Shown in pieces: positions 1 through 6,408 of a stretch of 6,408 nt of DNA (its first letter is position 1; each line of letters starts with the position of its first letter). The stretch lies in sequence record NC_025824.1, one strand, 5' to 3'. Position numbers and translations under genes: made by a program. The notes beneath the pieces were generated by a model, which was not told the DNA's origin, ran no database searches, and saw only the letters and a program-made list of their open reading frames with translations. The stretch is from Escherichia phage fd.

Positions 1-831
1 AACGCTACTACCATTAGTAGAATTGATGCCACCTTTTCAGCTCGCGCCCCAAATGAAAATATAGCTAAACAGGTTATTGACCATTTGCGAAATGTATCTA
101 ATGGTCAAACTAAATCTACTCGTTCGCAGAATTGGGAATCAACTGTTACATGGAATGAAACTTCCAGACACCGTACTTTAGTTGCATATTTAAAACATGT
201 TGAACTACAGCACCAGATTCAGCAATTAAGCTCTAAGCCATCCGCAAAAATGACCTCTTATCAAAAGGAGCAATTAAAGGTACTGTCTAATCCTGACCTG
301 TTGGAATTTGCTTCCGGTCTGGTTCGCTTTGAGGCTCGAATTGAAACGCGATATTTGAAGTCTTTCGGGCTTCCTCTTAATCTTTTTGATGCAATTCGCT
401 TTGCTTCTGACTATAATAGACAGGGTAAAGACCTGATTTTTGATTTATGGTCATTCTCGTTTTCTGAACTGTTTAAAGCATTTGAGGGGGATTCAATGAA
501 TATTTATGACGATTCCGCAGTATTGGACGCTATCCAGTCTAAACATTTTACAATTACCCCCTCTGGCAAAACTTCCTTTGCAAAAGCCTCTCGCTATTTT
601 GGTTTCTATCGTCGTCTGGTTAATGAGGGTTATGATAGTGTTGCTCTTACCATGCCTCGTAATTCCTTTTGGCGTTATGTATCTGCATTAGTTGAGTGTG
701 GTATTCCTAAATCTCAATTGATGAATCTTTCCACCTGTAATAATGTTGTTCCGTTAGTTCGTTTTATTAACGTAGATTTTTCCTCCCAACGTCCTGACTG
801 GTATAATGAGCCAGTTCTTAAAATCGCATAA
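1..831 (+). CDS. II: Replication initiation endonuclease gpII, 3' portion (CDS wraps across the window ends; 5' portion at 6007..6408)
   Basis: Open frame in phase 1 from base 1 to the TAA at 829..831. The ORF track's 85..831 is the same frame begun at an internal TTG. Frame is continuous with 6007..6408 if the window is circular, giving 1233 nt = 410 aa, the known size of Ff gpII. Sequence recognised as Ff gene II. Confidence 0.93.
   Translation, partial: NATTISRIDATFSARAPNENIAKQVIDHLRNVSNGQTKSTRSQNWESTVTWNETSRHRTLVAYLKHVELQHQIQQLSSKPSAKMTSYQKEQLKVLSNPDLLEFASGLVRFEARIETRYLKSFGLPLNLFDAIRFASDYNRQGKDLIFDLWSFSFSELFKAFEGDSMNIYDDSAVLDAIQSKHFTITPSGKTSFAKASRYFGFYRRLVNEGYDSVALTMPRNSFWRYVSALVECGIPKSQLMNLSTCNNVVPLVRFINVDFSSQRPDWYNEPVLKIA
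496..831 (+). CDS. X: gpX, in-frame internal restart within gene II (identical to the C-terminal 111 aa of gpII); replication regulator
   Basis: ATG at 496..498 is in the gene II frame and shares its stop at 829..831 (336 nt, 111 aa). Product begins MNIYDDSAVLDAIQSK. Established Ff gene X architecture. Confidence 0.85.
   Translation: MNIYDDSAVLDAIQSKHFTITPSGKTSFAKASRYFGFYRRLVNEGYDSVALTMPRNSFWRYVSALVECGIPKSQLMNLSTCNNVVPLVRFINVDFSSQRPDWYNEPVLKIA
799..807 (+). promoter_or_regulatory. Candidate extended -10 promoter element (TGgTATAAT) upstream of gene V
   Basis: TG at 799..800 and TATAAT at 802..807, about 35 nt upstream of the gene V ATG. No good -35 hexamer seen. Ff phages are known to have a promoter in front of gene V, but the exact placement here is my inference. 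Confidence 0.35.
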
Positions 832-842
832 GGTAATTCAAA

Positions 843-1106
843 ATGATTAAAGTTGAAATTAAACCGTCTCAAGCGCAATTTACTACCCGTTCTGGTGTTT
901 CTCGTCAGGGCAAGCCTTATTCACTGAATGAGCAGCTTTGTTACGTTGATTTGGGTAATGAATATCCGGTGCTTGTCAAGATTACTCTCGACGAAGGTCA
1001 GCCAGCGTATGCGCCTGGTCTGTACACCGTGCATCTGTCCTCGTTCAAAGTTGGTCAGTTCGGTTCTCTTATGATTGACCGTCTGCGCCTCGTTCCGGCT
1101 AAGTAA
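843..1106 (+). CDS. V: gpV, single-stranded DNA-binding protein (87 aa)
   Basis: ORF 843..1106, product MIKVEIKPSQAQFTTRSGVSRQGKPYSLNEQLCYVDLGNEY..., recognised as Ff gene V protein. Shine-Dalgarno-like AAGGT at 830..834. Confidence 0.97.
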   Translation: MIKVEIKPSQAQFTTRSGVSRQGKPYSLNEQLCYVDLGNEYPVLVKITLDEGQPAYAPGLYTVHLSSFKVGQFGSLMIDRLRLVPAK

Positions 1107-1107
1107 C

Positions 1108-1209
1108 ATGGAGCAGGTCGCGGATTTCGACACAATTTATCAGGCGATGATACAAATCTCCGTTGTACTTTGTTTCGCGCTTGGTATAATCGCTGGGGGT
1201 CAAAGATGA
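1108..1209 (+). CDS. VII: gpVII, minor coat protein at the virion tip that emerges first (33 aa)
   Basis: ATG at 1108, one base after the gene V stop (TAA 1104..1106). Translates to MEQVADFDTIYQAMIQISVVLCFALGIIAGGQR, stop TGA at 1207..1209. Too short for the ORF track; recognised as Ff gene VII. Confidence 0.9.
   Translation: MEQVADFDTIYQAMIQISVVLCFALGIIAGGQR
1163..1190 (+). promoter_or_regulatory. Candidate sigma70 promoter inside gene VII, driving gene IX/VIII transcription
   Basis: TTGTAC at 1163..1168, 16-nt spacer, perfect TATAAT at 1185..1190. Ff phages are known to have a strong promoter upstream of gene VIII; assigning it to these bases is inference from the motif. Confidence 0.5.
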
Positions 1210-1304
1210 GTGTTTTAGTGTATTCTTTCGCCTCTTTCGTTTTAGGTTGGTGCCTTCGTAGTGGCATTACGTATTTTACCCGTTTAATGGAAACTTCCTC
1301 ATGA
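1206..1304 (+). CDS. IX: gpIX, minor coat protein at the same virion tip as gpVII (32 aa)
   Basis: ATG at 1206..1208 overlaps the gene VII stop as ATGA. Translates to MSVLVYSFASFVLGWCLRSGITYFTRLMETSS, stop TGA at 1302..1304. Too short for the ORF track; recognised as Ff gene IX. Confidence 0.9.
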   Translation: MSVLVYSFASFVLGWCLRSGITYFTRLMETSS

Positions 1305-1522
1305 AAAAGTCTTTAGTCCTCAAAGCCTCCGTAGCCGTTGCTACCCTCGTTCCGATGCTGTCTTTCGCTGCTGAGGGTGACGATCCCGCAAAAGCGGCCT
1401 TTGACTCCCTGCAAGCCTCAGCGACCGAATATATCGGTTATGCGTGGGCGATGGTTGTTGTCATTGTCGGCGCAACTATCGGTATCAAGCTGTTTAAGAA
1501 ATTCACCTCGAAAGCAAGCTGA
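1301..1522 (+). CDS. VIII: gpVIII, major coat protein precursor (73 aa procoat; 23-aa signal peptide, 50-aa mature protein)
   Basis: ATG at 1301 overlaps the gene IX stop as ATGA. Product MKKSLVLKASVAVATLVPMLSFA|AEGDDPAKAAFDSLQASATEYIGYAWAMVVVIVGATIGIKLFKKFTSKAS. Mature residue 12 is Asp, as in fd/f1 (M13 has Asn). Confidence 0.98.
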   Translation: MKKSLVLKASVAVATLVPMLSFAAEGDDPAKAAFDSLQASATEYIGYAWAMVVVIVGATIGIKLFKKFTSKAS

Positions 1523-1537
1523 TAAACCGATACAATT

Positions 1538-1565
1538 AAAGGCTCCTTTTGGAGCCTTTTTTTTT
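1538..1565 (+). terminator. Rho-independent terminator after gene VIII
   Basis: Stem aaaggctcc (1538..1546), loop tttt, stem ggagccttt (1551..1559), followed by a T-run through 1565. Sits between gene VIII and gene III, matching the known Ff central terminator. Confidence 0.85.
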
Positions 1566-1578
1566 GGAGATTTTCAAC

Positions 1579-2853
1579 GTGAAAAAATTATTATTCGCAA
1601 TTCCTTTAGTTGTTCCTTTCTATTCTCACTCCGCTGAAACTGTTGAAAGTTGTTTAGCAAAACCTCATACAGAAAATTCATTTACTAACGTCTGGAAAGA
1701 CGACAAAACTTTAGATCGTTACGCTAACTATGAGGGCTGTCTGTGGAATGCTACAGGCGTTGTGGTTTGTACTGGTGACGAAACTCAGTGTTACGGTACA
1801 TGGGTTCCTATTGGGCTTGCTATCCCTGAAAATGAGGGTGGTGGCTCTGAGGGTGGCGGTTCTGAGGGTGGCGGTTCTGAGGGTGGCGGTACTAAACCTC
1901 CTGAGTACGGTGATACACCTATTCCGGGCTATACTTATATCAACCCTCTCGACGGCACTTATCCGCCTGGTACTGAGCAAAACCCCGCTAATCCTAATCC
2001 TTCTCTTGAGGAGTCTCAGCCTCTTAATACTTTCATGTTTCAGAATAATAGGTTCCGAAATAGGCAGGGTGCATTAACTGTTTATACGGGCACTGTTACT
2101 CAAGGCACTGACCCCGTTAAAACTTATTACCAGTACACTCCTGTATCATCAAAAGCCATGTATGACGCTTACTGGAACGGTAAATTCAGAGACTGCGCTT
2201 TCCATTCTGGCTTTAATGAGGATCCATTCGTTTGTGAATATCAAGGCCAATCGTCTGACCTGCCTCAACCTCCTGTCAATGCTGGCGGCGGCTCTGGTGG
2301 TGGTTCTGGTGGCGGCTCTGAGGGTGGCGGCTCTGAGGGTGGCGGTTCTGAGGGTGGCGGCTCTGAGGGTGGCGGTTCCGGTGGCGGCTCCGGTTCCGGT
2401 GATTTTGATTATGAAAAAATGGCAAACGCTAATAAGGGGGCTATGACCGAAAATGCCGATGAAAACGCGCTACAGTCTGACGCTAAAGGCAAACTTGATT
2501 CTGTCGCTACTGATTACGGTGCTGCTATCGATGGTTTCATTGGTGACGTTTCCGGCCTTGCTAATGGTAATGGTGCTACTGGTGATTTTGCTGGCTCTAA
2601 TTCCCAAATGGCTCAAGTCGGTGACGGTGATAATTCACCTTTAATGAATAATTTCCGTCAATATTTACCTTCTTTGCCTCAGTCGGTTGAATGTCGCCCT
2701 TATGTCTTTGGCGCTGGTAAACCATATGAATTTTCTATTGATTGTGACAAAATAAACTTATTCCGTGGTGTCTTTGCGTTTCTTTTATATGTTGCCACCT
2801 TTATGTATGTATTTTCGACGTTTGCTAACATACTGCGTAATAAGGAGTCTTAA
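1579..2853 (+). CDS. III: gpIII, minor coat / receptor-binding adsorption protein (424 aa including an 18-aa signal peptide); N1, N2 and C-terminal domains separated by glycine-rich linkers
   Basis: GTG start at 1579 just after the terminator, with GGAG at 1566..1569. Product [18 protein letters not shown]|[42 protein letters not shown]..., stop TAA at 2851..2853. The ORF track's 1549 start is a TTG inside the terminator hairpin. No foreign insert after the signal peptide. Confidence 0.96.
1834..1890 (+). repeat. Tandem 15-bp repeat encoding the (EGGGS)n first glycine-rich linker of gpIII
   Basis: gagggtggtggctct / gagggtggcggttct / gagggtggcggttct / gagggtggcggt read directly; encodes [19 protein letters not shown]. 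Confidence 0.95.
2284..2400 (+). repeat. Tandem 12-15-bp repeat encoding the GGGS/EGGGS second glycine-rich linker of gpIII
   Basis: About nine consecutive units (ggcggcggctct, ggtggtggttct, gagggtggcggctct ...) encoding [39 protein letters not shown]. Confidence 0.95.
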
Positions 2854-2855
2854 TC

Positions 2856-3194
2856 ATGCCAGTTCTTTTGGGTATTCCGTTATTATTGCGTTTCCTCGGT
2901 TTCCTTCTGGTAACTTTGTTCGGCTATCTGCTTACTTTCCTTAAAAAGGGCTTCGGTAAGATAGCTATTGCTATTTCATTGTTTCTTGCTCTTATTATTG
3001 GGCTTAACTCAATTCTTGTGGGTTATCTCTCTGATATTAGCGCACAATTACCCTCTGATTTTGTTCAGGGCGTTCAGTTAATTCTCCCGTCTAATGCGCT
3101 TCCCTGTTTTTATGTTATTCTCTCTGTAAAGGCTGCTATTTTCATTTTTGACGTTAAACAAAAAATCGTTTCTTATTTGGATTGGGATAAATAA
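2856..3194 (+). CDS. VI: gpVI, minor coat protein at the gpIII end of the virion (112 aa)
   Basis: ATG at 2856, two bases after the gene III stop; AAGGAG at 2842..2847. Hydrophobic product MPVLLGIPLLLRFLGFLLVTLFGYLL..., stop TAA at 3192..3194. Recognised as Ff gene VI. Confidence 0.96.
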   Translation: MPVLLGIPLLLRFLGFLLVTLFGYLLTFLKKGFGKIAIAISLFLALIIGLNSILVGYLSDISAQLPSDFVQGVQLILPSNALPCFYVILSVKAAIFIFDVKQKIVSYLDWDK

Positions 3195-3196
3195 AT

Positions 3197-4243
3197 ATGG
3201 CTGTTTATTTTGTAACTGGCAAATTAGGCTCTGGAAAGACGCTCGTTAGCGTTGGTAAGATTCAGGATAAAATTGTAGCTGGGTGCAAAATAGCAACTAA
3301 TCTTGATTTAAGGCTTCAAAACCTCCCGCAAGTCGGGAGGTTCGCTAAAACGCCTCGCGTTCTTAGAATACCGGATAAGCCTTCTATTTCTGATTTGCTT
3401 GCTATTGGTCGTGGTAATGATTCCTACGACGAAAATAAAAACGGTTTGCTTGTTCTTGATGAATGCGGTACTTGGTTTAATACCCGTTCATGGAATGACA
3501 AGGAAAGACAGCCGATTATTGATTGGTTTCTTCATGCTCGTAAATTGGGATGGGATATTATTTTTCTTGTTCAGGATTTATCTATTGTTGATAAACAGGC
3601 GCGTTCTGCATTAGCTGAACACGTTGTTTATTGTCGCCGTCTGGACAGAATTACTTTACCCTTTGTCGGCACTTTATATTCTCTTGTTACTGGCTCAAAA
3701 ATGCCTCTGCCTAAATTACATGTTGGTGTTGTTAAATATGGTGATTCTCAATTAAGCCCTACTGTTGAGCGTTGGCTTTATACTGGTAAGAATTTATATA
3801 ACGCATATGACACTAAACAGGCTTTTTCCAGTAATTATGATTCAGGTGTTTATTCATATTTAACCCCTTATTTATCACACGGTCGGTATTTCAAACCATT
3901 AAATTTAGGTCAGAAGATGAAATTAACTAAAATATATTTGAAAAAGTTTTCTCGCGTTCTTTGTCTTGCGATAGGATTTGCATCAGCATTTACATATAGT
4001 TATATAACCCAACCTAAGCCGGAGGTTAAAAAGGTAGTCTCTCAGACCTATGATTTTGATAAATTCACTATTGACTCTTCTCAGCGTCTTAATCTAAGCT
4101 ATCGCTATGTTTTCAAGGATTCTAAGGGAAAATTAATTAATAGCGACGATTTACAGAAGCAAGGTTATTCCATCACATATATTGATTTATGTACTGTTTC
4201 AATTAAAAAAGGTAATTCAAATGAAATTGTTAAATGTAATTAA
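3197..4243 (+). CDS. I: gpI, inner-membrane assembly ATPase (348 aa) with an N-terminal Walker A motif
   Basis: ORF 3197..4243. P-loop GKLGSGKT at residues 8-15 (about 3218..3241). Recognised as Ff gene I. Confidence 0.96.
   Translation: MAVYFVTGKLGSGKTLVSVGKIQDKIVAGCKIATNLDLRLQNLPQVGRFAKTPRVLRIPDKPSISDLLAIGRGNDSYDENKNGLLVLDECGTWFNTRSWNDKERQPIIDWFLHARKLGWDIIFLVQDLSIVDKQARSALAEHVVYCRRLDRITLPFVGTLYSLVTGSKMPLPKLHVGVVKYGDSQLSPTVERWLYTGKNLYNAYDTKQAFSSNYDSGVYSYLTPYLSHGRYFKPLNLGQKMKLTKIYLKKFSRVLCLAIGFASAFTYSYITQPKPEVKKVVSQTYDFDKFTIDSSQRLNLSYRYVFKDSKGKLINSDDLQKQGYSITYIDLCTVSIKKGNSNEIVKCN
3917..4243 (+). CDS. XI: gpXI, in-frame internal restart within gene I (C-terminal 108 aa of gpI); assembly protein
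   Basis: ATG at 3917..3919 is in the gene I frame and shares its stop. Product begins MKLTKIYLKKFSRVLCLAIGFASAF... and is 108 aa, the known size of gpXI. Confidence 0.8.
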   Translation: MKLTKIYLKKFSRVLCLAIGFASAFTYSYITQPKPEVKKVVSQTYDFDKFTIDSSQRLNLSYRYVFKDSKGKLINSDDLQKQGYSITYIDLCTVSIKKGNSNEIVKCN

Positions 4244-5501
4244 TTTTGTTTTCTTGATGTTTGTTTCATCATCTTCTTTTGCTCAAGTAATTGAAATGAA
4301 TAATTCGCCTCTGCGCGATTTCGTGACTTGGTATTCAAAGCAAACAGGTGAATCTGTTATTGTCTCACCTGATGTTAAAGGTACAGTGACTGTATATTCC
4401 TCTGACGTTAAGCCTGAAAATTTACGCAATTTCTTTATCTCTGTTTTACGTGCTAATAATTTTGATATGGTTGGCTCAATTCCTTCCATAATTCAGAAAT
4501 ATAACCCAAATAGTCAGGATTATATTGATGAATTGCCATCATCTGATATTCAGGAATATGATGATAATTCCGCTCCTTCTGGTGGTTTCTTTGTTCCGCA
4601 AAATGATAATGTTACTCAAACATTTAAAATTAATAACGTTCGCGCAAAGGATTTAATAAGGGTTGTAGAATTGTTTGTTAAATCTAATACATCTAAATCC
4701 TCAAATGTATTATCTGTTGATGGTTCTAACTTATTAGTAGTTAGCGCCCCTAAAGATATTTTAGATAACCTTCCGCAATTTCTTTCTACTGTTGATTTGC
4801 CAACTGACCAGATATTGATTGAAGGATTAATTTTCGAGGTTCAGCAAGGTGATGCTTTAGATTTTTCCTTTGCTGCTGGCTCTCAGCGCGGCACTGTTGC
4901 TGGTGGTGTTAATACTGACCGTCTAACCTCTGTTTTATCTTCTGCGGGTGGTTCGTTCGGTATTTTTAACGGCGATGTTTTAGGGCTATCAGTTCGCGCA
5001 TTAAAGACTAATAGCCATTCAAAAATATTGTCTGTGCCTCGTATTCTTACGCTTTCAGGTCAGAAGGGTTCTATTTCTGTTGGCCAGAATGTCCCTTTTA
5101 TTACTGGTCGTGTAACTGGTGAATCTGCCAATGTAAATAATCCATTTCAGACGGTTGAGCGTCAAAATGTTGGTATTTCTATGAGTGTTTTTCCCGTTGC
5201 AATGGCTGGCGGTAATATTGTTTTAGATATAACCAGTAAGGCCGATAGTTTGAGTTCTTCTACTCAGGCAAGTGATGTTATTACTAATCAAAGAAGTATT
5301 GCGACAACGGTTAATTTGCGTGATGGTCAGACTCTTTTGCTCGGTGGCCTCACTGATTACAAAAACACTTCTCAAGATTCTGGTGTGCCGTTCCTGTCTA
5401 AAATCCCTTTAATCGGCCTCCTGTTTAGCTCCCGTTCTGATTCTAACGAGGAAAGCACGTTGTACGTGCTCGTCAAAGCAACCATAGTACGCGCCCTGTA
5501 G
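4221..5501 (+). CDS. IV: gpIV, outer-membrane secretin for phage export (426 aa including a 21-aa signal peptide)
   Basis: ATG at 4221 preceded by AAGGT (4209..4213). Signal peptide MKLLNVINFVFLMFVSSSSFA then QVIEMNNSPLRDF... The ORF track's 4182 start is an upstream in-frame ATG inside gene I. Start overlaps the end of gene I by 23 nt; stop TAG at 5499..5501. Recognised as Ff gene IV. Confidence 0.95.
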   Translation: MKLLNVINFVFLMFVSSSSFAQVIEMNNSPLRDFVTWYSKQTGESVIVSPDVKGTVTVYSSDVKPENLRNFFISVLRANNFDMVGSIPSIIQKYNPNSQDYIDELPSSDIQEYDDNSAPSGGFFVPQNDNVTQTFKINNVRAKDLIRVVELFVKSNTSKSSNVLSVDGSNLLVVSAPKDILDNLPQFLSTVDLPTDQILIEGLIFEVQQGDALDFSFAAGSQRGTVAGGVNTDRLTSVLSSAGGSFGIFNGDVLGLSVRALKTNSHSKILSVPRILTLSGQKGSISVGQNVPFITGRVTGESANVNNPFQTVERQNVGISMSVFPVAMAGGNIVLDITSKADSLSSSTQASDVITNQRSIATTVNLRDGQTLLLGGLTDYKNTSQDSGVPFLSKIPLIGLLFSSRSDSNEESTLYVLVKATIVRAL

Positions 5502-5553
5502 CGGCGCATTAAGCGCGGCGGGTGTGGTGGTTACGCGCAGCGTGACCGCTACA
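5497..5553 (+). other. Packaging signal (morphogenetic signal) hairpin A, at the gene IV / intergenic boundary
   Basis: Left arm tgtagcgg (5497..5504) pairs perfectly with right arm ccgctaca (5546..5553), with further imperfect GC-rich pairing inside. Position immediately after gene IV matches the known Ff packaging hairpin. Exact limits approximate. Confidence 0.7.
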
Positions 5554-5599
5554 CTTGCCAGCGCCCTAGCGCCCGCTCCTTTCGCTTTCTTCCCTTCCT

Positions 5600-5760
5600 T
5601 TCTCGCCACGTTCTCCGGCTTTCCCCGTCAAGCTCTAAATCGGGGGATCCCTTTAGGGTTCCGATTTAGTGCTTTACGGCACCTCGACCTCCAAAAACTT
5701 GATTTGGGTGATGGTTCACGTAGTGGGCCATCGCCCTGATAGACGGTTTTTCGCCCTTTG
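5600..5760 (+). other. Minus-strand (complementary-strand) replication origin region, hairpins B and C (approximate limits)
   Basis: Inverted repeat ctaaatcgg (5635..5643) / ccgatttag (5661..5669) with inner ccct/aggg pairing forms hairpin B; more dyad symmetry follows. Location between the packaging signal and the plus origin matches the known Ff minus origin. A GGATCC (BamHI) site lies at 5645..5650 inside hairpin B. Confidence 0.6.
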
Positions 5761-5765
5761 ACGTT

Positions 5766-5810
5766 GGAGTCCACGTTCTTTAATAGTGGACTCTTGTTCC
5801 AAACTGGAAC
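5766..5810 (+). other. Plus-strand origin core: gpII recognition/nicking hairpin D and adjacent hairpin E
   Basis: Stem gagtccac (5767..5774) / gtggactc (5786..5793) around loop gttctttaata; the known gpII nick lies in the loop within cttt/aata (about 5781/5782). It is followed by the palindrome gttccaaactggaac (5796..5810). Sequence recognised as the Ff/f1 origin. Confidence 0.85.
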
Positions 5811-5934
5811 AACACTCACAACTAACTCGGCCTATTCTTTTGATTTATAAGGATTTTTGTCATTTTCTGCTTACTGGTTAAAAAATAAGCTGATTTAACA
5901 AATATTTAACGCGAAATTTAACAAAACATTAACG

Positions 5935-5963
5935 TTTACAATTTAAATATTTGCTTATACAAT
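5935..5963 (+). promoter_or_regulatory. Candidate sigma70 promoter for gene II
   Basis: TTTACA at 5935..5940, 17-nt spacer, TACAAT at 5958..5963, about 44 nt upstream of the gene II ATG. Consistent with the known promoter in front of gene II; exact assignment is inference from the motif. Confidence 0.5.
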
Positions 5964-6006
5964 CATCCTGTTTTTGGGGCTTTTCTGATTATCAACCGGG
6001 GTACAT

Positions 6007-6408
6007 ATGATTGACATGCTAGTTTTACGATTACCGTTCATCGATTCTCTTGTTTGCTCCAGACTTTCAGGTAATGACCTGATAGCCTTTGTAGACCTCT
6101 CAAAAATAGCTACCCTCTCCGGCATGAATTTATCAGCTAGAACGGTTGAATATCATATTGACGGTGATTTGACTGTCTCCGGCCTTTCTCACCCGTTTGA
6201 ATCTTTGCCTACTCATTACTCCGGCATTGCATTTAAAATATATGAGGGTTCTAAAAATTTTTATCCCTGCGTTGAAATTAAGGCTTCACCAGCAAAAGTA
6301 TTACAGGGTCATAATGTTTTTGGTACAACCGATTTAGCTTTATGCTCTGAGGCTTTATTGCTTAATTTTGCTAACTCTCTGCCTTGCTTGTACGATTTAT
6401 TGGATGTT
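6007..6408 (+). CDS. II: Replication initiation endonuclease gpII, 5' portion (runs off the window end and continues in phase at 1..831)
   Basis: ATG at 6007, open through 6408 (402 nt = 134 codons, no stop). Translates to MIDMLVLRLPFIDSLVCSRLSGNDLIAFVDLSKIATLSGMNLSARTVEYHIDGDLTVSG... Recognised as the gpII N-terminus. Confidence 0.92.
   Translation, partial: MIDMLVLRLPFIDSLVCSRLSGNDLIAFVDLSKIATLSGMNLSARTVEYHIDGDLTVSGLSHPFESLPTHYSGIAFKIYEGSKNFYPCVEIKASPAKVLQGHNVFGTTDLALCSEALLLNFANSLPCLYDLLDV

Follow-up and report, generated by a model that had tools for sequence, protein, structure and literature searches.

Coordinate map of the packaging and replication signals in the gene IV / gene II intergenic region of bacteriophage fd

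Introduction

The intergenic region of the Ff phages f1, M13 and fd is familiar as the "f1 ori" of cloning vectors and has been well studied. The published packaging signal lies between gIV and the origin, comprises a 24-bp stem with the motif CGGGT..GGTG and acts with pVII/pIX. The minus-strand primer is synthesised by host RNA polymerase on SSB-coated DNA. In f1, M13 and fd, gpII binds and nicks the supercoiled duplex RF, and linear DNA is left uncut. The sequence that gpII recognises and cuts has been published as GTTCTTT^AATA, with the nick placed at 5780/5781 in M13 and at 5781/5782 in fd, and the gIIp footprint covers M13 5774-5813. Domain A of the plus-strand origin is needed for initiation and termination of plus-strand synthesis, and the enhancer is bound by IHF in duplex DNA. 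The gene V protein operator serves the translational repression of gene II. According to a review, the intergenic region also contains the major rho-dependent terminator.

Priming from folded ssDNA is known from further systems. The sso of pT181 type, which is primed by RNA polymerase, the ssi of phiX174 and G4 and the Frpo/ssi promoters resemble the fd minus origin in that folded ssDNA stays free of SSB and attracts a host enzyme, which makes one primer for complementary-strand synthesis. phiX174 and G4 employ the primosome or primase, whereas RNA polymerase is used at the fd minus origin.

Results

The window, meaning the whole stretch of DNA analysed, was the complete 6408-nt genome of phage fd. 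The translations of gpII and gpIV were residue-for-residue those of the fd proteins (G2P P69545; G4P P03664). Over the whole genome, Copypasta and FfIris, which are fd-like isolates, showed a DNA identity of 99.2%, and f1/M13 one of 97%. For the intergenic region, it was 98.4-98.8% to the fd-like isolates and 96.0-96.3% to f1/M13 (over 571 nt). The gene order corresponded to that of annotated Ff records, with the region located between gene IV, encoding the secretin, and gene II, encoding the replication initiator. Gene II was present as a 410-aa ORF starting at 6007 and crossing the circular junction. The original prediction of a non-coding gap of 505 nt was confirmed at 5502-6006, the classical gene IV / gene II intergenic region, as the gene IV TAG occupies 5499-5501 and the gene II ATG starts at 6007.

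Annotated f1 and M13 records marked only the flanking genes and no origin features. Feature coordinates were therefore taken from papers and shifted, the window coordinate being the published f1/M13 coordinate +1. The published M13 and fd coordinates mapped onto the predicted hairpins. Together with the fd proteins and the 96% identity, this upheld the identification as an Ff intergenic region with packaging signal, minus origin, plus origin with nick site and AT-rich enhancer. The intergenic region of bacteriophage fd is thus almost certainly a packed set of cis-acting signals. Identity, hairpins and their excess stability, strand asymmetry, conservation and covariation, and exact matches to published motifs were computed here. 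Which proteins act, and in what order, was taken from the literature, and the rut-like tract was placed by deduction. The features were as follows:

5499..5501, plus strand: gene IV stop codon TAG, overlapping the foot of hairpin A; the flanking translation is that of fd G4P
5500..5577, plus strand: hairpin A, packaging (morphogenetic) signal, from fold, motif, position and published description
5578..5624, plus strand: pyrimidine-rich, C-rich, G-poor spacer, candidate Rho-loading (rut-like) tract, from composition
5625..5679, plus strand: hairpin B, minus-strand (complementary-strand) origin, from fold and covariation
5693..5751, plus strand: hairpin C, minus-strand origin, with a 14-bp core of 5706-5719 paired with 5723-5736
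5718..5737, minus strand: predicted template for the primer RNA of ~20 nt (RNA 5'-AGGGCGAUGGCCCACUACGU-3') made by host RNA polymerase
5767..5793, plus strand: hairpin or palindrome D, plus-strand origin, with an 8-bp perfect stem and an 11-nt loop with the gpII nick
5770..5820, no strand assigned: plus-origin domain A (core origin), published M13 5769-5819 shifted by +1
5794..5812, plus strand: hairpin or palindrome E, which belongs to the gpII binding region and has an 8-bp perfect stem within the published footprint
about 5821..5911, no strand assigned: plus-origin domain B, the AT-rich replication enhancer, published M13 5820 to ~5910 shifted by +1
~5826-5858 (strong) and 5887-5943 (weak): IHF sites, published M13 5825-5857 and 5886-5942 shifted by +1
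5935..5963, plus strand: gene II promoter, TTTACA, 17-nt spacer, TACAAT
5970..5985, plus strand: gene V protein operator GTTTTTGGGGCTTTTC, located in the gene II mRNA 5' UTR and identical to the 16-nt operator described in the literature
5996..6009, plus strand: gene II Shine-Dalgarno region CCGGGG with the ATG (6007-6009), from sequence

The f1/M13 region shared its position, the five hairpins, nick sequence, enhancer, promoter and operator with fd. About 23 substitutions separated fd from f1/M13, nearly all of them in 5813-5965. Among nine Ff genomes, 12 variable columns were found in 5500-5812 versus 46 in 5813-5965. Further differences from f1/M13 were T5614, A5647, T5690 and C5692, and A5647 introduces a BamHI site into the hairpin B loop. 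The 456-bp f1 ori cassette of phagemids corresponded to 5489-5944. IKe and the IKe-like Erwinia PEar phages shared the order of elements, with a packaging hairpin where gene IV ends, then two hairpins of the minus origin and two of the plus origin with TTTAATAGTGGACTCTTGTT. Five stem-loops in the order found here were annotated in the IKe record. IKe and these phages were alignable to fd only at ~5592-5752 and at the nick region, with roughly 80% identity, and differed in the sequence of the packaging signal. In IKe, C and D were separated by ~100 additional nt, and the D stem was longer, with 11 bp and a 5-nt loop. Compensatory changes were seen in B, C and E in relatives.

Folding of the plus strand of 5480-5830 as ssDNA gave -72.1 kcal/mol, compared with -47.0 +/- 3.8 kcal/mol for dinucleotide-preserving shuffles (n=100), corresponding to a z of -6.6 with none of the 100 shuffles as good. 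Five hairpins, A to E, were present on the plus strand, with z of -2.8 to -5.4 versus shuffles. The stable hairpins expected for this segment were thus found. In a sliding ssDNA fold of 100-nt segments over the whole genome, the nine most stable segments were all located within 5431-5610, with a minimum of -29.9 kcal/mol versus a genome mean of -7.5. The inverted repeats listed in the original prediction were all present and perfect:

5497-5504 with 5546-5553: 8 nt
5635-5643 with 5661-5669: 9 nt, the core of a 19-nt repeat
5767-5774 with 5786-5793: 8 nt
5796-5801 with 5805-5810: 6 nt, the full helix being 8 bp (5794-5801 with 5805-5812)

That list was real as far as it went, but hairpin C (5693-5751) was missing from it. 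Hairpins A and C depended on G.T pairs and folded well on the plus strand only. D and E, in contrast, were perfect palindromes without G.T pairs and showed equal stability on both strands. This agrees with action of A and C in ssDNA and of D and E in duplex DNA. All elements had been expected to act in the single-stranded form of the genome, which was correct for the packaging signal and the minus origin but not for the plus origin and the enhancer, which work on supercoiled duplex. A scan of the whole window against Rfam (E<=1) yielded no match in 5497-6006 and weak sub-threshold hits at the gene VIII terminator only. The lack of an Rfam family over the region is expected, as the elements act as DNA.

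In hairpin A, an upper stem of 24 bp (5513-5536 with 5540-5564) was capped by a 3-nt loop, and 5500-5507 paired with 5569-5577 to form a lower stem. The ascending limb of the hairpin carried CGGGT (5519-5523), followed by GGTG (5526-5529). It thus represented a long imperfect plus-strand hairpin of ~24 bp right after gene IV with both motifs of the packaging signal on its ascending limb. The hairpin reached -29.0 kcal/mol (z -3.1) with pair probabilities of 0.89-1.0 and was part of the most stable 100-nt ssDNA segment of the genome. The minus strand folded worse, with -22.6 kcal/mol (z -1.1), due to five G.T pairs in the plus-strand stem. The sequence did not vary among nine Ff strains and hence gave no covariation within Ff. 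IKe, PEar1 and an IMG/VR relative showed a different sequence with a hairpin at the equivalent place, in which the CGGGT..GGTG motif was kept. The repeat at 5497..5553 had been taken as the hairpin here, a claim that was replaced by the 24-bp stem. Pairing of 5497 with 5553 was an alternative register with an ensemble probability of ~0, and forcing it in a constrained fold cost 8.5 kcal/mol. The spacer downstream of hairpin A, 5578-5624, was 87% pyrimidine, the highest value among all 47-nt segments of the genome. With 45% C and 13% G, 5564-5641 was the most C-rich, G-poor 78-nt segment of the genome.

The minus origin consisted of two hairpins, B and C, with the predicted primer template carried by C. 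Upstream of the plus origin, the two lay next to each other on the viral strand and were conserved across Ff and IKe. Hairpin B showed -15.5 kcal/mol (z -5.3), and its IKe equivalent was annotated as minus-strand origin. In 16 phage and plasmid homologues, 96% of the cells of its 19-pair helix were standard pairs, and four pairs were changed on both sides. Hairpin C folded on the plus strand alone, at -11.4 kcal/mol (z -2.8), with no equivalent hairpin on the minus strand (z -1.6). Its core contained three conserved G.T pairs. The 30-nt core was identical in Ff, IKe, PEar and one IMG/VR phage and covaried in plasmid homologues. Searching IMG/VR with this core retrieved only four loci, namely IKe, one IKe-like phage and two contigs with the phagemid cassette. 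The predicted lower stem (5693-5704 with 5738-5751) showed no conservation outside Ff and may not exist. Positions 5718-5737 had AGGGCGATGGCCCACTACGT as their reverse complement, reportedly the same as the primer RNA sequence that Higashitani et al. gave in 1993.

Covariation within Ff strains was uninformative, as the stems do not vary. In Ff and IKe-like phages alone it was weak, with three pairs changed on both sides, a level reached by 137 of 500 shuffles. Clear covariation of B+C appeared only after plasmid homologues were added. In the resulting alignment of 16 sequences, 95.5% of the cells paired versus 35-51% in slid controls, 21 cells were changed on both sides and the covariation score was reached by none of 500 shuffles.

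At the plus-strand origin, hairpin D showed -7.4 kcal/mol (z -5.35) and hairpin E -6.3 kcal/mol (z -5.1). Folded together, D and E reached -13.7 kcal/mol (z -5.4). The D loop, 5775-5785, read GTTCTTT^AATA with the published cut between T5781 and A5782. As in the gpII family of origins, the cut sequence was located in the loop of an inverted repeat, the second repeat E adjoined it and the gpII gene lay alongside. In FfLilac, the 8-bp stem of D was retained by a compensated change, an inserted A together with G5786T. The helix of E was kept in IKe through a swap of C-G to G-C at 5799/5807.

The AT-rich part showed no excess structure (z +1.1), and domain B varied more among Ff strains than any other part of the region. 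An AT-rich stretch of ~100 nt directly 3' of the core origin with predicted IHF sites matched the described enhancer. Sites resembling the IHF consensus, with one mismatch each, were found at 5833-5845, 5896-5908, 5919-5931 and 5944-5956. Genome-wide, IHF consensus matches were not enriched, with 16 compared with 11.5 expected, and the local clustering of predicted IHF-like sites in domain B is suggestive. The enhancer had been placed at about 5830..5950. An AT-rich, unstructured enhancer was indeed present at ~5821-5911, with IHF sites up to 5943, but 5935-6006 was taken up by the gene II control signals, namely promoter, gene V protein operator and ribosome site. The gene II promoter was the best sigma-70-like site within 5300-6200, with 10 of 12 positions matching. 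Two M13KE changes fell on these control signals. Deletion G6748, described as located in the gene II promoter, corresponded to G5934 adjoining the -35 hexamer, and the Shine-Dalgarno mutation G6813A corresponded to G5999.

Other explanations of the hairpins were considered. The major rho-dependent terminator in the region and the C-rich, G-poor tract following hairpin A would suit hairpins that serve mainly as gene IV transcription terminators instead of replication or packaging signals, and an old IKe annotation labelled all five stem-loops as "potential transcription termination". However, a scan found no intrinsic terminator, no hairpin was followed by a T run and A and C rely on G.T pairs of the viral-strand DNA. 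Nor would termination account for the conserved nick sequence, for a hairpin C that is identical over 30 nt between genera or for the occurrence of the B+C module in plasmids outside transcription units. Terminators as the main role are therefore very unlikely; termination at 5560-5640 probably comes in addition and does not amount to an alternative. It is extremely unlikely that the ORFs 5524-5739 (plus strand), 5409-5609 (minus) and 5628-5819 (minus) are real small genes with incidental hairpins. They exist in the sequence, and the automated annotation of Copypasta placed two "hypothetical proteins" here, one of which corresponds to 5527-5739. When four ORFs within or beside the region were compared with Pfam and PHROGs, however, no family was detected; the one hit was an insignificant DUF6238 (E 0.07, 13.5 bits at a cut-off of 29.1 bits). 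The plus-strand ORF was frameshifted in FfLavender and truncated in f1, 5628-5819 was broken in FfLilac and absent in f1, and the start of 5409-5609 changed. No gene was annotated here in the hand-curated f1, M13 and IKe records, and conservation tracked helices, not codons. The three ORFs, in the ORF list but without protein family or conservation among Ff strains, are by-products, as had been assumed.

Base composition offered a further explanation, in which the hairpins are functionless chance products of a G+C-rich stretch. With 49-65% G+C, 5450-5750 was the most G+C-rich part of the genome (5800-5999 held 23-32%), and such DNA folds more stably. This was refuted by the shuffle and covariation controls, given that no dinucleotide-preserving shuffle folded as well and that compensatory changes preserved the helices in diverged relatives. 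After G+C content was regressed out, the segments of the region were still outliers by 3-4.5 sd. The probability of a chance origin is vanishingly small, and the hairpins are read as packaging and replication signals.

Covarying homologues of the B+C module were present in about 1200 enterobacterial plasmid records. Three of the plasmid copies examined, all from large plasmids, were located ~0.6-0.7 kb downstream of a rep gene. Replicons of R1 type carry a primase "G site" for leading-strand priming at that distance downstream of rep. Frpo/ssi elements are found in conjugative leading regions, whereas the three B+C copies lay just downstream of rep genes.

Discussion

The signals mapped here would act in sequence. 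On the incoming SSB-coated plus strand, B and C would remain double-stranded and be recognised by the host RNA polymerase holoenzyme. Along the 3' arm of C, RNA polymerase would then synthesise a short primer, and DNA polymerase III would extend it to the minus strand. On the supercoiled duplex, gpII would bind the D/E palindromes of domain A and nick the plus strand at T5781/A5782. It would stay on the 5' end and prime rolling-circle synthesis, and after one round cut and reseal at the same site. Domain B with IHF would raise initiation roughly 30- to 100-fold, and the last 70 nt, with promoter, gene V protein operator and ribosome-binding site, would couple the supply of gpII to how far the infection has advanced. 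Hairpin A would form on the packaged plus strand, be free of gene V protein and mark the DNA end where pVII/pIX begin assembly. Rho is probably loaded at the C-rich tract that separates A from B and would end the gene IV transcript, the exact placement of the tract being one we infer from composition.

A possible reading, short of a probable one, is that B+C (5625-5751) is a copy of a mobile ssDNA-priming cassette exchanged among Ff/IKe phages, small enterobacterial plasmids and large plasmids of IncF/IncI type. If true, some theta-replicating plasmids start their leading strand from an f1-type primer made by RNA polymerase. The spread of B+C in plasmids gives real covariation support for both hairpins and is of possible interest for plasmid replication.

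The original prediction was correct in its main finding, and everything in it was already known. The region is among the best dissected cis-acting DNA segments, and phagemids, M13 sequencing vectors, phage display and the production of ssDNA scaffolds all build on it. The useful output is a coordinate map for this exact sequence. In this map, strand asymmetry separates two classes of elements, the G.T-dependent hairpins A and C acting in ssDNA and the perfect palindromes D and E acting in duplex DNA.

Genome context of the intergenic region

The window was a complete circular Ff genome in standard numbering, whose end junction rebuilds GTT/AAC. The 410-aa gpII, encoded from 6007 through the junction, matched fd G2P (P69545) in every residue, as did the 426-aa gpIV (4221-5501) with fd G4P (P03664). 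DNA identity was 99.2% to the recent fd-like isolates Copypasta and FfIris and 97% to f1 and M13. In the intergenic region, a window position equals the f1/M13 position plus one. The single long non-coding stretch comprised 505 nt between the TAG of gene IV (5499-5501) and the start of gene II (6007). All four perfect inverted repeats named in the original prediction were present, as was the AT-rich stretch (23-32% G+C). The observation was confirmed and its reading as packaging signal, minus origin and plus origin was supported, with corrections. All features of the element itself were known before.

Folding of the plus strand

Folded as single-stranded DNA, the plus strand of 5480-5830 reached -72.1 kcal/mol, compared with -47.0 +/- 3.8 kcal/mol in dinucleotide-preserving shuffles (z -6.6). 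When the whole genome was folded in sliding 100-nt windows, the nine with the greatest stability all lay within 5431-5610, and the region was still an outlier by 3-4.5 sd once G+C content was regressed out. Five stem-loops were predicted.

Predicted hairpins of the intergenic region
5500-5577, plus strand: hairpin A (packaging signal), -29.0 kcal/mol, z -3.1
5625-5679, plus strand: hairpin B (minus origin), -15.5 kcal/mol, z -5.3
5693-5751, core 5706-5736, plus strand: hairpin C (minus origin), -11.4 kcal/mol, z -2.8
5767-5793, plus strand: hairpin D (plus origin), -7.4 kcal/mol, z -5.35
5794-5812, plus strand: hairpin E (plus origin), -6.3 kcal/mol, z -5.1

Compared with shuffles, no excess structure was found in the AT-rich 5830-5950 (z +1.1) or the gene II leader (z +1.7). 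Two corrections concerned the hairpins originally listed. Hairpin C was missing, and the proposed pairing of 5497-5504 with 5546-5553 was a competing register with an ensemble probability of about 0, which cost 8.5 kcal/mol when forced. Hairpin A is in fact built on a 24-bp helix between 5513-5536 and 5540-5564, with a lower stem beneath it. Elsewhere in the genome, the only other strongly folding 100-nt windows were at 3271-3410 and 1461-1560. One, located in gene I, had -19.5 kcal/mol (residual z -3.2). The other, where gene VIII ends and weak sub-threshold Rfam stem-loop matches also fall (1536-1576), is presumably the gene VIII terminator.

Packaging signal, minus-origin primer and spacer

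The published packaging signal is a 24-bp stem between gene IV and the origin, with CGGGT and then GGTG in its ascending limb. Hairpin A matched this description exactly (CGGGT at 5519-5523, GGTG at 5526-5529). The sequence AGGGCGAUGGCCCACUACGU, which we take to be the minus-strand primer RNA, was the reverse complement of 5718-5737, a segment spanning the loop of hairpin C and its 3' arm. The spacer between hairpins A and B (5578-5624) was 87% pyrimidine, the highest value among all 47-nt windows of the genome, and 5564-5641 was the most C-rich, G-poor 78-nt window. No intrinsic terminator was predicted, and a review places the major rho-dependent terminator in the intergenic region. We infer that the pyrimidine tract is a candidate site for Rho loading on the gene IV transcript.

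Strand form of the elements

Five G.T pairs were present in hairpin A and six in hairpin C, three of these in the core. Because these pairs turn into C.A mismatches on the minus strand, hairpin A folded there with only -22.6 kcal/mol (z -1.1) and hairpin C was lost (z -1.6). Hairpins B, D and E were equally foldable on either strand, D and E without any G.T pair. According to the literature, the packaging signal and minus origin function on the viral single strand, whereas gpII binds and nicks supercoiled duplex RF, leaving linear DNA uncut, and IHF binds the enhancer in duplex form. The strand asymmetry of the hairpins fits these published roles. The claim that all elements act in the single-stranded form was therefore half right: it holds for the packaging signal and minus origin, and fails for the gpII plus origin and the IHF enhancer.

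Plus origin, enhancer and gene II control signals

For M13, a published map gives a gIIp footprint at 5774-5813, the nick between T5780 and A5781, domain A at 5769-5819, domain B from 5820 to about 5910 and IHF sites at 5825-5857 and 5886-5942, together with the 16-nt gene V protein operator GTTTTTGGGGCTTTTC and mutations of promoter and Shine-Dalgarno sequence (PMC5405960). Shifted by +1, these coordinates coincided exactly with window features. The published cut sequence GTTCTTT^AATA was located in the hairpin D loop, which places the cut between T5781 and A5782, the nick position in fd numbering (PMC11765958). Three gene II control signals were placed.

Control signals of gene II
5935-5963, plus strand: gene II promoter TTTACA-17-TACAAT, the top sigma-70-like site of the region
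5970-5985, plus strand: gene V protein operator, located by sequence
5999, plus strand: gene II Shine-Dalgarno G, from the published mutation shifted by +1

The promoter adjoined the base whose deletion was published as 'in the gene II promoter' (PMC5405960). Genome-wide, a single site matched the IHF consensus perfectly (AATCAAGTTTTTG), at 5692-5704 on the minus strand, within the lower hairpin C stem. We know of no function for this match.

Intergenic ORFs and probable vector-derived copies

The three ORFs dismissed in the original prediction as by-products were present in the ORF list. Pfam and PHROGs scans of the intergenic ORFs matched no family, and in FfLavender, FfLilac and f1 the ORFs carried frameshifts, were truncated or were absent. 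Both results bore out their dismissal. In Copypasta (OR791786, 99% identical), two 'hypothetical proteins' were auto-annotated (CDS 6154-6366 and 6338..100), corresponding to window 5527-5739, one of the spurious ORFs, and about 5711-5881; these reading frames lacked conservation among Ff strains. The exact 456-bp phagemid 'f1 ori' cassette equalled window 5489-5944 and occurred at ~95% identity in unrelated records. These were phage records of lambda (OR474059), Listeria phage LM 4-14-1 (OR848931, 3074 bp) and Escherichia phage ECO95 1-6-1 (OR845556, 2111 bp), two IMG/VR loci (L017 and L019) and plasmid records of Micromonospora, Ruficoccus, Staphylococcus, Aeromonas and Mucilaginibacter. The cassette in these phage, viral-contig and plasmid records looks like cloning-vector sequence.

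Conservation among Ff and IKe-like phages

Across nine Ff genomes, 12 variable columns fell in the hairpin block 5500-5812 compared with 46 in 5813-5965, and hairpin A was invariant. The sole D-stem change among Ff genomes was found in the natural isolate FfLilac (PP430150), with an A inserted after 5773 and G5786T. The double change gave a perfect 8-bp stem (GAGTCCAA with TTGGACTC), either alone 7 bp, and altered the fifth base 3' of the nick. T5614, A5647, T5690 and C5692 distinguished the window from f1, M13 and other fd-like isolates; the divergent FfLavender also has T5614, A5647 and C5692. A5647 gives rise to a second BamHI site (5645), located in the hairpin B loop, and the GGGGATCCC loop version was also present in the small plasmids pEC11-7, a ColpVC plasmid (L025) and pBio3.

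Five stem-loops are annotated in the IKe record, in the same order as in the window. Packaging hairpins of IKe-like phages differed in sequence but kept position, stability (z -4 to -6) and CGGGT..GGTG, and the helix of IKe hairpin E was preserved by a C-G to G-C swap. Since 30 nt of the hairpin C core were identical across genera (Ff, IKe, PEar and an IMG/VR phage), this core points to sequence-specific recognition besides structure. Just upstream of hairpin B, the block GTTCTCCGGC (5609-5619) was identical in the window, FfLavender, IKe and PEar1 amid diverged flanks; to our knowledge, it has no known function. In Erwinia phage PEar4 (MT901799; ~6390-6560), the 35 nt after the nick (AATAGTGGACTC...GTGCTA) were relocated relative to IKe, ~100 nt upstream of a segment ending GAGTCCACTATGTTT, so that one rearrangement junction coincided exactly with the gpII-type nick GTTT^AATAG. 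The entire plus-origin D/E block was missing from the PEar1 record (MT901797; 6475-6500). These oddities reflect either artefacts of assembly at the RF nick or genomes that are rearranged or defective.

Plasmid homologues of the minus origin

In a search of plasmid records, the minus-origin segment (B and C, 5625-5751) matched 1192 enterobacterial records; the homologue loci were L022 (4001-4033), L023 (1561-1693, minus strand), L024 (4001-4112) and L025-L032. About 180 Salmonella pSLT-type plasmids carried the hairpin C core as an exact 33-nt match. B and C were found at 76-82% identity in small plasmids (1.3-2.3 kb) of the ColpVC and Col(BS512) types, and many large IncF-type plasmids matched at 72-79%. 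In two IncFII-type replicons, with CopA RNA present, and one repZ-type replicon, the rep gene was followed at a distance of ~0.6-0.7 kb by the element, which was oriented such that it would prime synthesis away from the origin. R1-type plasmids have a primase 'G site' at the equivalent position downstream of rep. In a Klebsiella plasmid, the element followed a gpII-family initiator gene (Pfam Phage_CRI and G2P_X_C), which suggests a role as single-strand origin in a rolling-circle module.

Folded independently, each homologue examined formed the same two hairpins. In a 16-sequence alignment, 95.5% of cells paired compared with 35-51% when the partner was slid by one to three columns. Changes on both sides affected six pairs (21 cells), and the covariation score was reached by 0 of 500 shuffles. 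This covariation argues for hairpins B and C as real, selected structures, and is the strongest independent evidence for them here.
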